Shown here: positions 41,530 through 46,350 of the stretch, piece by piece
Layout of the letters: each line of letters begins with the position of its first letter
Position numbering within the stretch: position 1 is the first letter of the stretch
Assembly (NCBI GenBank): GCA_050949315.1
Contig: JBMNFL010000001.1
Span: 704,001 to 768,000, forward strand
Length of the DNA: 64,000 nucleotides
Direction of reading: 5' to 3'
Source: Bacilli bacterium
Lineage (GTDB): Bacteria > Bacillota_I > Bacilli_A > RFN20 > UBA1709
Made by a program: the position numbers and the translations under genes
The notes under the pieces: generated by a model
What the model was told of the DNA's origin: nothing
The model's database searches: none
The model's input: only the letters and a program-made list of their open reading frames with translations

Positions 41530-41555
41530 AAAAAAAGTTGGTTTGGAACCAACTT
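41530..41555 (-). terminator. Intrinsic terminator of the rnf operon
   Basis: Perfect stem AAGTTGGTT-TGG-AACCAACTT with an adjacent A run, 4 nt after the rnfB stop. Confidence 0.8.
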
Positions 41556-41559
41556 AATT

Positions 41560-41877
41560 TTAAAGTTTTATTGTGCTGCCATCCGGCCCTGGCGTTTCAG
41601 CTAAATATTTCTTTATTGCTTCTTTCTGCTCAGGCTTAGCAACACGACAAGGATCTAAACTTTTTATTTCGCCTTTAACAATAGCGGCGGCAAAACCCGA
41701 ACACCCCGGTTTACCACAAGCTCCACAATTATAGCCAGGAAGTAAAGAGTTGACTGTTTCTATCCTTTCATCAGTCTTGACTGAAAAATAATGAGCACCA
41801 ACGGCACAAATCAAGCCCATAAGTCCTGCTATCGCTAAAAAAACCACAACGGCAGTAACAACATTTCCCCAGTTCAT
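41560..41877 (-). CDS. rnfB: RnfB, N-terminal anchor and first Fe-S domain only (105 aa)
   Basis: TM helix, then F.V..DER...LPGYNCGACGKPGC...C; no CxxCxxCxxxCP ferredoxin repeats; RBS AGGAGG. Confidence 0.85.
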   Translation of the reverse strand: MNWGNVVTAVVVFLAIAGLMGLICAVGAHYFSVKTDERIETVNSLLPGYNCGACGKPGCSGFAAAIVKGEIKSLDPCRVAKPEQKEAIKKYLAETPGPDGSTIKL

Positions 41878-42056
41878 TCTTTTTCCTCCTTATCCTTGCT
41901 GTTTTTTAAACAACTAGTAATGGGACAAGTCTTACAAGCGGCGTCTAATTTTTCACAACCTTCGGGCTTCGGTGTATTTTTGTTTAATACATAAGAGAGC
42001 ACAAACAAAACAATTAGCGCCATAACAATAATAATTGCCCAAATATACGACGGCAT
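41874..42056 (-). CDS. Small membrane-anchored Cys-rich protein inside the rnf operon (unknown function)
   Basis: 60 aa: one TM helix, then C-x6-C-x2-C-x4-C. RBS GGAGG lies inside the rnfA end, the ATG abuts the rnfA stop, and there is an ATGA overlap with rnfB. Confidence 0.8.
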   Translation of the reverse strand: MPSYIWAIIIVMALIVLFVLSYVLNKNTPKPEGCEKLDAACKTCPITSCLKNSKDKEEKE

Positions 42057-42629
42057 TTAGAAAATCCCTCCAAAACCATAAAAGGCCAAGGCCATAACTC
42101 CTGCCAAAACAAAAGCCACCGGAATACCTTTAAAATATTTAGGAACGGGAGCAACTTCAATTTTTTCACGAATTGATGAAAAAATAAACATAACCAACAA
42201 ATAACCAACACCGATGCAAACGGCGTAAACTACTGCTTCAATGAAACTATAATTATTTTGAATATTGGTGGTGGCAACACCCAAAATCGCGCAGTTGGTA
42301 GTAATCAGTGGTAAATAAATTCCTAAAGCTTCGTAAAGTTTGGGGATGAATTTCTTCAAAAACATTTCCACAAATTGAACGAGTGTTGCAATAACCAAAA
42401 TTGAAACAATTTGATCCAAATAGTTAATCCCTAGCGGAATCAATAAGAAGTGATAAATGCACCAAGTAACCACCGAAGCCAAAACAAGAACGAAAATAAC
42501 AGCAAAACTCATTCCGATCGCATTTTTCTTTTGGGTTGAAACCCCTATAAACGAGCAAATACCCAAAAATTGAGAAAGCAGAACGTTGCTAACTAAAATA
42601 GCGCCAAAGCCCAGTGAAATTAATGCCAT
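42057..42629 (-). CDS. rnfA: Rnf complex subunit A
   Basis: Motifs NVLLSQFLGIC, LVQFVEMFL and LGIYLPLITTNC. Confidence 0.95.
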   Translation of the reverse strand: MALISLGFGAILVSNVLLSQFLGICSFIGVSTQKKNAIGMSFAVIFVLVLASVVTWCIYHFLLIPLGINYLDQIVSILVIATLVQFVEMFLKKFIPKLYEALGIYLPLITTNCAILGVATTNIQNNYSFIEAVVYAVCIGVGYLLVMFIFSSIREKIEVAPVPKYFKGIPVAFVLAGVMALAFYGFGGIF

Positions 42630-42630
42630 T

Positions 42631-43284
42631 TTATTTCACCTCTTTCTTTTCTTTTTTAGGCCTGTTATGAAAAGCGGCAGTAATTGCAAACATAACGCCC
42701 AAAGCAAAGAAGGCTCCTGCTGCTTGACCAAACAAGGATATTTTTAATTCTGGTAATAAAGTTAAAGTAAACGATTGCGTGGTATTAAAAGGGTTAGAAA
42801 AAGTGAGCGTTTGGGTGGAAATTATTTCCCGCACTAAACTAAAAACAATTAAAACAAGACCAAACCCCAACGACATGCCTACAGCATCAATAATTGATGG
42901 CAAAACCTTGTTTTTAGAAGCAAAAGCCTCTGCTCGACCAAGAATTAAACAATTTACAACAATTAAAGGTATGAAAATACCTAAAGATTCGTGTAGTTCT
43001 GGAGTAAAAGCCTTCATTAAGGATTCAATACAACTAACAAAAGTGGCAATCACAATAATAAAAATAGGAATTCTTATCTCGTTTGGAACTAATTTTCTAA
43101 TTAAAGATATTGTTATATTAGATAATAAAAGGACGGCAAACACCGCAAATGACATCCCAATGGCGTTATCTACCCTCGTAGAAACCGCCAATAAAGGACA
43201 AAGCCCAAGAGCAGAAACTAAAATGGGGTTTTCCGTAAAAACGCCTGTTTTAATGATGTTTTTAAATTTTACTTTTTCTTCCAT
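42631..43284 (-). CDS. rnfE: Rnf complex subunit E
   Basis: Motifs ENPILVSALGLCPLLAV and LGIFIPLIVVNCLILGRAEAFA; start ATG 43284 with RBS GGAGG. Confidence 0.95.
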   Translation of the reverse strand: MEEKVKFKNIIKTGVFTENPILVSALGLCPLLAVSTRVDNAIGMSFAVFAVLLLSNITISLIRKLVPNEIRIPIFIIVIATFVSCIESLMKAFTPELHESLGIFIPLIVVNCLILGRAEAFASKNKVLPSIIDAVGMSLGFGLVLIVFSLVREIISTQTLTFSNPFNTTQSFTLTLLPELKISLFGQAAGAFFALGVMFAITAAFHNRPKKEKKEVK

Positions 43285-43285
43285 T

Positions 43286-43837
43286 TTATTTATCCTCCCT
43301 AACTGTGCTATGAAAATCAATAACCTTAGTTACGGATTTTTTAATTCCATTCATGGTTTTGGTAGCTCCTGTTGATAGGTCCGTTCCTTTGTCTAATTTA
43401 TTAAACGGTAAATCTTTAAACCACGCGACAAATTCTTCGTTTGCAATTAAATCGGCGCCATAGCCTGAAGTTTCGCTATTAGAAATAAAACTAATTCCTA
43501 TGATTTTTTCTTCTTCATTACTAAGAACTATCAAATAAACGATATCCCCACTATAGCCCTTACCAACCGCTTGATAAGCGCTGGCTTTTTTTTCTCCTCC
43601 CGTTGTTAAGTCATAAATCGTGCTAATGCTATATTGATCTAAATTATCATAACCCTTGCTGACGTCTTCTACTGTTTCAACATTTGGATAAAGTTCTTCG
43701 ATGGCTTCTTTGGCTTTTTGAATATTTCTTTCATTAATTATCGGATTTGTAATCCAGTAAACAATTGCTAAACAAAAAGCACAAATTATACCAACAATCG
43801 CTAAGATCAAGGGATATTTTAAAAACTTATTTTTCAT
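43286..43837 (-). CDS. rnfG: Rnf complex subunit G (FMN-binding)
   Basis: N-terminal TM helix, GYSGDI, ETSGYG and flavinylation motif STGAT. Confidence 0.88.
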   Translation of the reverse strand: MKNKFLKYPLILAIVGIICAFCLAIVYWITNPIINERNIQKAKEAIEELYPNVETVEDVSKGYDNLDQYSISTIYDLTTGGEKKASAYQAVGKGYSGDIVYLIVLSNEEEKIIGISFISNSETSGYGADLIANEEFVAWFKDLPFNKLDKGTDLSTGATKTMNGIKKSVTKVIDFHSTVREDK

Positions 43838-44901
43838 TAAGCTACACCCCCTAAGAAGGCAACGCCAATATTAATTCCAATTGCCAAGACAAGAAGCGCC
43901 AAAATTACGCCCCAGCGTTGACCAATTTTATCAGTGGTTTTACCTTTAACTAAACCGTCAATGATTGGTGTTAAAAGGTTCATAAAAACAATAGAGAAGA
44001 CCACGCCTTCTGGCAGGGCTCCAGAGACCCTAATTAGAATCGTAATTGCTGCGGCGCCTAACCCAAAAATAATTTTCCCCATCGGCGATGTTGGTGTAGT
44101 AACTGGATCAGTAACCATAAACACCGCACCAAAGGCTAGTCCCCCAACCAAAATATGGGTTATTCCATAAACAAACGGGTTGGCAACCCCAAAGGCTAAT
44201 CCCATAAATAACGTTATTAAGAACGCCGAAACAGTATAACTTACCATAAGTCTTGGGTCGGCAATCTTTCTAATTGATAAATAAATTCCAGCAATAAGTA
44301 ATGTTAATGCGCTGGTTTCGCCAATCGCCCCCGCGTAGTTTCCCAAAAACAAACGACCGAGACTGAAGCCGTCAGGTAGAATTCCGTCTTTCCAATTGAG
44401 TGCGCTCGTTATTGTCGCGCTTGTTGTGGCATCACTAACTAGCCCTGGAACTCCAGTGATTGCTAAAGAAAATGATAAGGCAACAATAATTCTTCCTAGG
44501 CCAGCTGGGTTAATTGGGTTATAACCAAAACCTCCGAAAACAATTTTACCAAAAACAATAGCTAAAACAATGCCGACGACAATTGCATAATAAGAAACTG
44601 TAACTGGCAAAGTCAAAACAAAGATTAAGGCCGTAACATAACTATAAGAGCCTACAAAATACTGCCAAACATTCTTTTTAATTATTAAAGCGGTAACAAC
44701 ATCTGTAACAAAAGCCGCAACTAAAGCAACAACCCCCATTAGAATGGTTTTTGTTCCTTCAGCTTCTCCCATAAGGGTATAATTCATTAAAATCGCCACA
44801 AACCAAACCACAACCAAAACAAGGCTTAGTTCAAGCATAATTCCTTTAGTTGTGCGCTTTGTGCTTCTTTGGAAAGGCGCTGGTTTTATTCTAAACTTCA
44901 T
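43837..44901 (-). CDS. rnfD: Rnf complex subunit D
   Basis: Motifs KIVFGGFGYNPINPA, TSAT, GAIGETS, FMVTDPVTTP and PEGVVFSI. Confidence 0.95.
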   Translation of the reverse strand: MKFRIKPAPFQRSTKRTTKGIMLELSLVLVVVWFVAILMNYTLMGEAEGTKTILMGVVALVAAFVTDVVTALIIKKNVWQYFVGSYSYVTALIFVLTLPVTVSYYAIVVGIVLAIVFGKIVFGGFGYNPINPAGLGRIIVALSFSLAITGVPGLVSDATTSATITSALNWKDGILPDGFSLGRLFLGNYAGAIGETSALTLLIAGIYLSIRKIADPRLMVSYTVSAFLITLFMGLAFGVANPFVYGITHILVGGLAFGAVFMVTDPVTTPTSPMGKIIFGLGAAAITILIRVSGALPEGVVFSIVFMNLLTPIIDGLVKGKTTDKIGQRWGVILALLVLAIGINIGVAFLGGVA

Positions 44902-44913
44902 CCGCTCTCCCCC

Positions 44914-46233
44914 TTATTTCTTGGCAGCCTTAGCTTTGGCGGCCGCAATTTTCAGCATCAATTTGGCTTTGCGAATACTTTCTGTCACCATAATTCGACT
45001 TGGACAAACGAAAGTACAAAGACCGCATTCAATACAACTATTTACTTTTAAGTCTTGGAGTCTTTTTTCGTCTTTCTTTTCAACTGCCTCTTTAATCTCT
45101 ACTGGTTGCAGAGAGGCCGGACAGTGAAGAGTACAGGCTCCACAACGCAAACAAGGTTCAGCTTCAATTTCTTCAAAAAATAAAACTGTGTAGCCTCCGC
45201 TTTGCTTTTCAACAACAAATTGGTCATTCATTTGTGCCTTGCTACACATTGGTCCACCAGCCAAGAGAAAAACTTGTTCTCCTTTATAGCCGCCACAAGC
45301 TTCAATAATTTTGCTAACAACTGTCCCAACAGGAACTCGAATGTTTTGGGGCTCTTTAATTGCGGTTCCTGAAACAGTAACAACTCTTTCGGTTATAGGT
45401 TTTCCTTCTAAGACGGCTTTAGCAACCGCCATTGCCGTTTGTGCATTATTTACGATAACCCCAATTTCAGAAGGAAGATTTTCATATTCTTTTTTAAAAA
45501 CGTTCCAAACCAAGGTTCTTTCCCAACCGGCCGGGTAACGATCTTTAACTTCTTTAATTTCAATATTAGGATAACTGTCTATATACTTTAGAATGGCTTC
45601 TTTCATATCGGAGTGCCCTTCTTTAAAGGCGATAATTGCCTTTTTTGCCTGACTTGCGCGCATCATTAAACTTATGCCCTTGAGCATGGTCTCGGTTTCT
45701 TCAACAACCATTAAATTATCGGTAGTTAAATAAGGCTCGCATTCACAAGCGTTAATTAAGATGGTTTTAATATTTTTGGCTCCATATTTGATATAGGTTG
45801 GGAAACCCGCGCCACCTAAGCCAACTATTCCCGCTTCCTTGATGGCCTCAACAATTTCTTCAGAACTAACTTTATCATAATCATATTTTTTTAAACTTTC
45901 TTCTGTTTCATATTTAAAATCGTTATCAATAACAAAGTGGTCAACCGGCCGACCCGTTAAAGAATTAAATCTTTTTTCCGTTCCTGAAACAAATCCAGAG
46001 ACAGGCGAGAAAACCGGAACATAAAAACCTTGAGAAACACCAATTCTTGTTCCTTTTTTGACATAATCGCCTTCTTTGATGTCTAACAACAACTCTTTTC
46101 CGTTTCCTGAAACAAGAGGAATATAAATTTTACCGATGGCCTTTGGATCAGTAAGCGTAATAATTTTTTTGCCGTGGGTTAACTCTTTGTGACCCTGGAT
46201 ATGACAACCGCCCCGAGAAAATAGAATTCCCAT
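44914..46233 (-). CDS. rnfC: Rnf complex subunit C (NADH/FMN, two 4Fe-4S)
   Basis: Motifs AGIVGLGGAGFPT, NACECEPYLT, YPAGWE, GGPM, CLRCGACTLHCP and CIECGLCTFVCP; start ATG 46233 with RBS GGAGG. Confidence 0.96.
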   Translation of the reverse strand: MGILFSRGGCHIQGHKELTHGKKIITLTDPKAIGKIYIPLVSGNGKELLLDIKEGDYVKKGTRIGVSQGFYVPVFSPVSGFVSGTEKRFNSLTGRPVDHFVIDNDFKYETEESLKKYDYDKVSSEEIVEAIKEAGIVGLGGAGFPTYIKYGAKNIKTILINACECEPYLTTDNLMVVEETETMLKGISLMMRASQAKKAIIAFKEGHSDMKEAILKYIDSYPNIEIKEVKDRYPAGWERTLVWNVFKKEYENLPSEIGVIVNNAQTAMAVAKAVLEGKPITERVVTVSGTAIKEPQNIRVPVGTVVSKIIEACGGYKGEQVFLLAGGPMCSKAQMNDQFVVEKQSGGYTVLFFEEIEAEPCLRCGACTLHCPASLQPVEIKEAVEKKDEKRLQDLKVNSCIECGLCTFVCPSRIMVTESIRKAKLMLKIAAAKAKAAKK

Positions 46234-46321
46234 TTTATTCCTCCTTTTTGTCGACACAGATATATTAATTTATTTGTTTTATACTGCCTTTTATAGTAAA
46301 ACTGAATATCAATTCACATTA

Positions 46322-46350
46322 ATTATCAGTTGCTTTCTTCTAATAGTCAA
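46322..46350 (-). promoter_or_regulatory. Candidate sigma-A promoter of the rnf operon
   Basis: TTGACT-17-GATAAT on the minus strand. Confidence 0.55.

Follow-up and report, generated by a model that had tools for sequence, protein, structure and literature searches.

A conserved seventh gene between rnfA and rnfB encodes a small four-cysteine membrane protein, a candidate partner of a shortened RnfB

The window analyzed here, a 64,000-nucleotide (nt) stretch of DNA from a Bacilli bacterium (positions 704,001 to 768,000 of contig JBMNFL010000001.1, assembly GCA_050949315.1), contains an rnf operon of seven genes in the order rnfCDGEA-small-rnfB, all on the minus strand. Rnf is described as a six-subunit pump, joined by RnfH in some Proteobacteria, and the additional gene, which encodes 60 amino acids (aa) at 41874..42056, is the subject of this study. 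The operon begins behind a promoter-like site at 46322..46350 (minus strand; a consensus match only, 10 of 12 positions) with rnfC (44914..46257; Complex1_51K, RnfC_N, SLBB, and Fer4 domains), followed by rnfD (43837..44901; PF03116), rnfG (43286..43837; PF04205, the FMN_bind domain), rnfE (listed as 42631..43320; PF02508), and rnfA (42057..42629; 190 aa, PF02508, and TIGR01943 at 243.6 bits, above the cut-off). The longest rnfE reading frame starts from a TTG at 43320 and overlaps rnfG by 35 nt; this start is probably too far upstream, and the ATG at 43284 better fits the alignment with relatives. The last gene, rnfB (41560..41877), was identified by Pfam, NCBIfam, and a PDB profile match (9eri_B), and encodes a mini form of 105 aa, hereafter called mini-RnfB. 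Directly 3' of it lies a terminator-like hairpin with a 9-bp stem and a T run (41535..41555, minus strand).

The open reading frame (ORF) of the small gene, read from its ATG on the minus strand, translates into exactly the 60 residues quoted in the original prediction, which did not give the strand and had described an unannotated, translationally coupled gene for a new Fe-S or metal-binding Rnf subunit that partners the truncated RnfB. The two-sided coupling is confirmed by a reading of the sequence. The rnfA stop codon TAA (42059..42057) directly abuts the small-gene ATG (42056..42054) in a TAAATG junction, and the small-gene TGA (41876..41874) overlaps the rnfB ATG (41877..41875) in an ATGA junction. 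The GGAGG ribosome-binding site (RBS) reported earlier inside rnfA is also present, as GGAGGG at 42066..42071, 9 nt 5' of the small-gene ATG, and an AGGAGG site for rnfB lies within the end of the small gene (41885..41890, 7 nt 5' of the rnfB ATG; both sites on the minus strand).

The small protein is bitopic and consists of an N-terminal transmembrane (TM) helix (residues 3-27), a juxtamembrane stretch L-N-K-x-T-P-x-P-x-G-C, the Cys motif C34-x6-C41-x2-C44-x4-C49, and an acidic/basic tail. In the AlphaFold2 (AF2) model of the monomer the helix 3-27 is confident, with a predicted local distance difference test score (pLDDT) above 85. Members of the family have on average 2.5 Lys or Arg residues in the 12 positions after the helix, versus a net charge of +0.2 before it; by the positive-inside rule, the protein would be oriented N-out/C-in, with the Cys tail in the cytoplasm. 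The neighboring mini-RnfB is composed of a TM anchor and a single-cluster PF04060 domain, which is its only domain match, and it lacks the polyferredoxin domain. It corresponds to about residues 5-95 of RnfB from Acetobacterium woodii (9eri_B), 8-90 of that from Clostridium tetanomorphum, and 1-79 of that from Azotobacter vinelandii. This part of RnfB is portrayed in a recent review as a flexible ferredoxin-like domain passing electrons to the [2Fe-2S] cluster of RnfA/E (PMC12174285). Its motif C51-x2-C54-x4-C59 has the same spacing as C41, C44, and C49 of the small protein.

The small ORF is a real gene and more than a chance reading frame, since it is conserved in sequence and in position and is under purifying selection, with a median ratio of nonsynonymous to synonymous polymorphism (pN/pS) of 0.14 in 40 equal-length pairs at 3-25% nucleotide divergence. 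The original prediction of a seventh operon gene with an N-terminal anchor and four cysteines is thereby upheld, and these cysteines, whose loss in homologues would have spoken against it, are largely kept. Among 68 non-redundant sequences C41, C44, and C49 are invariant, and C34, L24, N25, T28, P29, and P31 are each conserved in at least 90%; at least four tail cysteines are present in 67 of the 68, the gap between the third and fourth is 4 in 65, and that between the first and second varies from 5 to 9. The LNKxTPxPxGC motif sets the rnf-linked family apart. When the family profile was run against 1.84 billion representatives at 50% identity, it retrieved 453 proteins at E ≤ 0.001, including 144 at E ≤ 1e-10, and the best 150 of the 453 are 50-110 aa long. 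In public records the homologues are already called as genes and named "hypothetical protein," so that the gene is unannotated with respect to function only; the short RnfB appears there as "(Fe-S)-binding protein" or "electron transporter RnfB." No account of a gene between rnfA and rnfB was found in the literature searched on Rnf, RnfB, and NqrM. As to expression, one metatranscriptome contig is identical to the window over 42021..42270, which takes in the 3' end of rnfA and 36 nt from the start of the small ORF, and further contigs from RNA libraries cover parts of rnfB, rnfA, and rnfE; these are sparse, carry-over of DNA is possible, and a lack of cover elsewhere is no evidence.

The distribution of the gene was analyzed at three levels. 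In a sample of the order (40 related genomes and the window's own, 1.01 Mb in one contig), a match to the small family at E ≤ 0.01 was obtained in 29 of the 41 genomes, and 26 of the 28 matches outside the window's own genome are flanked by rnfA and a short rnfB (94-130 aa). One match, in G020 (E 0.004), was rejected as spurious: the genome has no RnfA, and the match falls within a long ORF. Of the 41 genomes, 31 have RnfA; the small gene is present in 30 of them, including G029 and G035, where a diverged copy in the same slot was recognized by ORF reading, and one could not be scored (the G001 contig ends inside rnfA). In the 10 genomes without RnfA there is no genuine small-gene match.

A pattern scan with one genome per species yielded 72 loci, 66 of them with the arrangement rnfE-rnfA-small-rnfB and three more with the same context cut by contig ends. 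The RnfB of the rnf-context loci has 92-130 aa throughout, and the carriers, by record title, are Erysipelotrichaceae, Solobacterium, Bulleidia, Coprobacillus, Massilimicrobiota, Candidatus Stoquefichus, Anaeroplasma, Bacilli, and Leptotrichia/Leptotrichiaceae. The remaining three loci come from two isolates of Mycoplasmatota and a metagenome-assembled genome (MAG) of Izemoplasmatales and hold a three-Cys variant between msrA and a dCMP deaminase gene. Co-translation with the operon (the TAAATG and ATGA junctions) and a kept slot (26 of 28 and 69 of 72 loci), as looked for in an Rnf subunit, are thus both found. The slot is kept while RnfA identity drops to about 40%. Contigs titled Bifidobacteriaceae, Duodenibacillus, Eubacterium, and Lachnospiraceae (L100-L104) have rnf loci near-identical to those of Bulleidia and are probably mis-binned.

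Of 151 genomes in the class sample, 76 gave a match to the small family, and an RnfA-like gene is present in 88 of 150. These 88 include every one of the 76, and the family is absent from all 62 genomes lacking an RnfA-like match. The copy stands directly after rnfA in 59 of the 76 carriers. The 12 genomes with an RnfA-like match and no small-gene match are each accounted for: four have versions of 35-40 aa in the rnfA-rnfB slot, three have Nqr operons with NqrF following, three have a long polyferredoxin RnfB and no small gene, one is 55% complete, and in one the junction contains masked sequence. Copies unlinked to rnf, mostly with three cysteines, occur upstream of a dCMP deaminase gene, between a phosphoglucomutase-like gene and ung, after ilvE, and near pdhAB. 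The three-Cys paralogues just upstream of the dCMP deaminase gene follow msrA, aspS, or a ThiF-like gene (L074:2501-2731, L085:2459-2683, L165, L170-L172, L181, and L182), and the rnf operons of those lineages lack the small gene.

Co-occurrence with a short RnfB, proposed in the original prediction, holds in one direction. In about 100 non-redundant operons with the small gene, RnfB has 86-130 aa, with one more of 187 aa containing two PF04060 domains, and in every inspected operon that holds the gene the polyferredoxin arm is absent from RnfB. Conversely, none of the 31 inspected operons with a long RnfB (28 from Fusobacteriales and three from the class sample) has the small gene. Fusobacteriales contain both types: among the 61 genomes searched, 36 have RnfA, and all four with a strong small-gene match have mini-RnfB, whereas 28 of the other 32 have an RnfB of 297-446 aa (these lengths exclude G052, G056, G093, and G095). 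Five weaker matches in this group (E 0.001-0.01) were rejected as spurious, lying inside long ORFs or containing stops. Thus the small gene implies mini-RnfB and the converse does not hold; shared descent may explain the link. In a quick RnfA tree, in which rows L031 and L032 are mislabeled as lacking the small gene, the Leptotrichiaceae carriers group with an Erysipelotrichales MAG, apart from other Fusobacteriales (Shimodaira-Hasegawa-like approximate likelihood ratio test, 95-99), and an approximately unbiased (AU) test does not reject a single Fusobacteriales clade (p 0.34).

Some RnfB variants encountered in this survey deserve mention in their own right. Ten RnfB proteins of Fusobacteriales (355-446 aa; L123-L126, L128-L130, L133, L139, and L145) contain, in place of the ferredoxin domains after PF04060, two to four copies of a Lys/Glu-rich helical repeat, so that the polyferredoxin arm is missing here in a different manner. 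The RnfB of 187 aa with two PF04060 domains comes from one Bacilli genome (L183:2928-3488) and is preceded by an 82-aa member of the small family; a second paralogue of 66 aa lies about 0.8 kb downstream, the two small ORFs being at L183:3484-3729 and L183:1951-2148. The genomes of one family (G211, G150, and G122; L196-L203) have three rnf operons each, all with mini-RnfB, and the small gene is present in one only; G211 also carries an nqr-like operon with NqrF (L198).

The resemblance to RnfB suspected from the C-x2-C-x4-C spacing and from the layout of anchor and Cys domain proved to be stronger than first described, as the profile comparison includes the anchor. An hhalign alignment of the small family with mini-RnfB gives 95.8% (E 7.9e-9, 59 columns), pairing anchor with anchor and C41, C44, and C49 with C51, C54, and C59 of RnfB; this is at the level of remote homology and indicates likeness, not membership, and no PF04060 match was obtained for the window's small protein or for 27 family members. 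In control comparisons, feoB-type peptides reach 57% over 10 columns against RnfB, and 30 shuffles within the anchor and tail blocks score at most 20.6 (at most 14.5%) versus 48.6 for the real family, while keeping the anchor and shuffling the tail leaves a score of about 33. The two proteins, encoded by adjoining genes, both begin with a single N-terminal TM anchor followed by C-x2-C-x4-C. They differ in the fourth Cys, which in the small protein lies 5-9 residues upstream of the core and in RnfB about 17 residues downstream (C-x2-C-x4-C-x16/17-C; compare the anchor and one-cluster domain in structures 9eri_B, 7zc6_B, and 8ahx_B), and in that the small protein ends about 11 residues past its last Cys. 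Since the match over the anchor and the Cys core exceeds the controls, the small protein was probably derived from the front half of RnfB. The distance matrices show a partial correlation of 0.47 between the small protein and RnfB given RnfA, versus 0.29 between the small protein and RnfA given RnfB, a weak comparison as all three genes belong to one operon. In addition, there is a 135-aa protein, P0234, in which a Bulleidia-type small protein runs in frame into an RnfB Fe-S domain that lacks an anchor of its own; it could be a genuine deletion variant or could stem from misassembly, and should be taken as a lead only. No other fusion was found among proteins of 29-167 aa, and none at 168-2000 aa, where the search provides weak evidence.

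Taken together, these data define a distinct type of Rnf, rnfCDGEA-small-rnfB with mini-RnfB, in small-genome Bacilli, Erysipelotrichaceae, Anaeroplasma-like lineages, and some Leptotrichiaceae. For the small protein itself we tentatively favor, at somewhat less than even confidence, the role of an RnfB-derived, metal- or Fe-S-binding accessory subunit located beside mini-RnfB. According to this scheme, it would have arisen as a shortened copy of the RnfB front half, retaining the anchor and the C-x2-C-x4-C ligands, and its four cysteines would bind a metal centre, most likely a small [4Fe-4S] cluster or Fe(Cys)4. A compact motif, CX4CX2CX5C, is reported to form a [4Fe-4S] cluster in FeoC of E. 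coli (PMC8749426). The Cys motif would be placed at the cytoplasmic face of the membrane, where the flexible one-cluster domain of RnfB operates; the protein would adjoin RnfB on the RnfA/E dimer, serving as a second membrane-anchored module for redox transfer or docking, and may help ferredoxin electrons to reach RnfB and the in-membrane [2Fe-2S] cluster. A bolder formulation, which we consider doubtful, is that of a seven-subunit Rnf in Erysipelotrichaceae, small-genome Bacilli, and some Leptotrichiaceae, where an RnfB-derived micro-subunit with its own small Fe-S centre and mini-RnfB would together form a two-anchor electron-entry module replacing the polyferredoxin arm, and the unlinked three-Cys paralogues would be spin-offs with other membrane partners.

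A number of observations weigh against the accessory-subunit reading. Metal binding, membership in the complex, and the replacement of the polyferredoxin arm as electron entry point put forward in the original prediction are predictions from sequence, and in the AF2 monomer the Cys tail has no defined structure (pLDDT of about 50-63). The hhalign match to RnfB has 15% identity, about two thirds of its score come from the hydrophobic anchor, and P0234 is a single sequence from one ENA metagenome contig. The small family is not exclusive to rnf, because 17 of the 76 class-sample carriers hold it only outside the rnf slot; in the order sample, G002 keeps a good four-Cys homologue away from rnf, and its rnfA and rnfB abut. 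Moreover, mini-RnfB occurs without an adjacent copy. It directly follows rnfA in five rnf operons of three Mycoplasmatota/Izemoplasmatales genomes; eight genomes with unlinked copies have rnfA followed directly by an RnfB of 94-115 aa, and the genomes with three rnf operons contribute six extra mini-RnfB operons lacking the small gene. Thus, of the original claim of a new Fe-S or metal-binding partner of mini-RnfB, the seventh gene, its four cysteines, and its presence in rnf operons only beside an arm-less RnfB stand, and the operons without an adjacent copy speak against a strict need of mini-RnfB for it. The phyletic counts span related genomes and are hence not independent; the link with mini-RnfB may reflect shared descent of one operon type, and the independence of the Leptotrichiaceae case is unproven. 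Finally, the Rnf of Thermotoga maritima, with an RnfB of 10.56 kDa and one predicted [4Fe-4S] cluster, is described as active and as pumping Na+, and accepts electrons from clostridial ferredoxin (Kuhns et al. 2020, PMC7414866). The gene order given in that description is rnfCDGEAB, with no seventh gene mentioned in the passages concerned, and the cluster number of this RnfB is stated there as still to be established. The T. maritima enzyme demonstrates that ferredoxin can serve as electron donor to an Rnf with mini-RnfB.

The best surviving alternative, one that fits the same data equally well and that we nevertheless rate as unlikely, is an NqrM-like maturation factor, that is, an anchored Cys peptide supplying Fe or Fe-S to the [2Fe-2S] cluster of RnfA/E or to the cluster of RnfB without being a stoichiometric subunit. 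NqrM (DUF539) reportedly has a single TM helix and four conserved cysteines, the layout of the small protein. It is small, membrane-bound, encoded with the operon of a homologous pump, Na+-NQR, and linked to an in-membrane Fe-S cluster, for whose [2Fe-2S] insertion it is held, in the sources cited, to be needed (PMC12174285, PMC6209661); nqrM comes after the structural genes, whereas the small gene stands between two of them, following rnfA, which encodes one of the two cluster-holding subunits. A factor acting in trans would better explain one copy per three rnf operons and the unlinked copies. The tight two-sided translational coupling is more suited to equimolar synthesis, and a general inserter would be expected with a long-RnfB Rnf as well, which has the same RnfA/E cluster, yet all 31 such operons are without the gene. 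Membership in the NqrM family was rejected: no match to PF04400 at E ≤ 1 was obtained for any of the 27 family members, nor was one found in the whole genome.

It is quite unlikely that the small protein is a generic PF12669-like peptide lodged in the rnf operon by chance and having no specific role in Rnf. The PF12669-type peptides are of the same general build, 50-70 aa long with a TM helix at the N terminus, basic residues next to the membrane, and clustered cysteines, and PF12669 (FeoB_associated) is the only recurring Pfam family, with matches at E ≤ 1 in 13 of the 27 members (the best at 1.2e-4). These matches remain below the 27-bit cut-off, including those of the window's protein (15.9 bits, E 0.016) and of the one rnf-linked copy recovered in a genome scan, that of G012 (21.6 bits). 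The hhalign comparison with 17 feoB-adjacent peptides of the order gives 92% (E 5.5e-7) over a stretch of only 16 columns in the Cys core, and PF12669 is the nearest named ESM Atlas cluster at 0.85, a lead only, closer clusters being Bacillota at 0.94. A sequence search of the PDB with the family profile gave chance-level TM matches only (E ≥ 0.38) and no similar chain. The paralogues in several unrelated gene contexts would suit a generic peptide. On the other hand, the small gene does not adjoin feoB, in relatives 16 of 17 PF12669-type peptides follow that gene, and the genome has a separate 51-aa peptide with a TM helix and four cysteines directly after its own feoB (L112:1471-1623, at about 547.5 kb, outside the window; 22.4 bits), which is its true PF12669-type gene. 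The Cys spacing given for feoB-type peptides, Cx3-5Cx2-3Cx6-8C, differs from that of the small protein, and whether they are even translated is described in the same source as not established (PMC8749426). The retention of the rnfA-rnfB slot down to such low RnfA identity and the absence of the family from the 62 class-sample genomes without an RnfA-like match also argue against a chance location.

The least probable alternative, a purely structural micro-subunit, Zn-bound or disulfide-free, that stabilizes the mini-RnfB anchor and has no redox role, would fit the anchor being the best-conserved and best-modelled part, which alone scores about 33 in hhalign against the RnfB anchor, and has a precedent in the cofactor-free RnfH, but the three invariant and one near-invariant cysteines with RnfB-like spacing argue for a metal site, for which Zn and Fe-S are not distinguished. 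RnfH, an extra lineage-specific subunit of Rnf1 in Azotobacter vinelandii, is characterized as cytoplasmic (PMC12174285) and is unrelated to the small protein in sequence and layout, the likeness being that of one more lineage-specific subunit.

As to the habitat, the segment 41400..43400 of the window is present word for word in 14 DNA sequencing runs on metagenomes of anaerobic digesters, bioreactors, and landfill, which suggests that the source organism lives in such systems.

The way in which the mini-RnfB forms of Rnf draw electrons from ferredoxin is an open question, and the small protein is a candidate for the missing input or assembly part of these complexes, whose carriers belong to common gut and oral lineages as well as to organisms of anaerobic digesters. 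It would also provide a second well-defined partner system for the large, uncharacterized class of PF12669-like micro-proteins composed of a TM helix and a Cys cluster, and future preparations and maps of Rnf merit a search for small chains. Overall, the Rnf pump of this operon type probably has an undescribed seventh part or helper.

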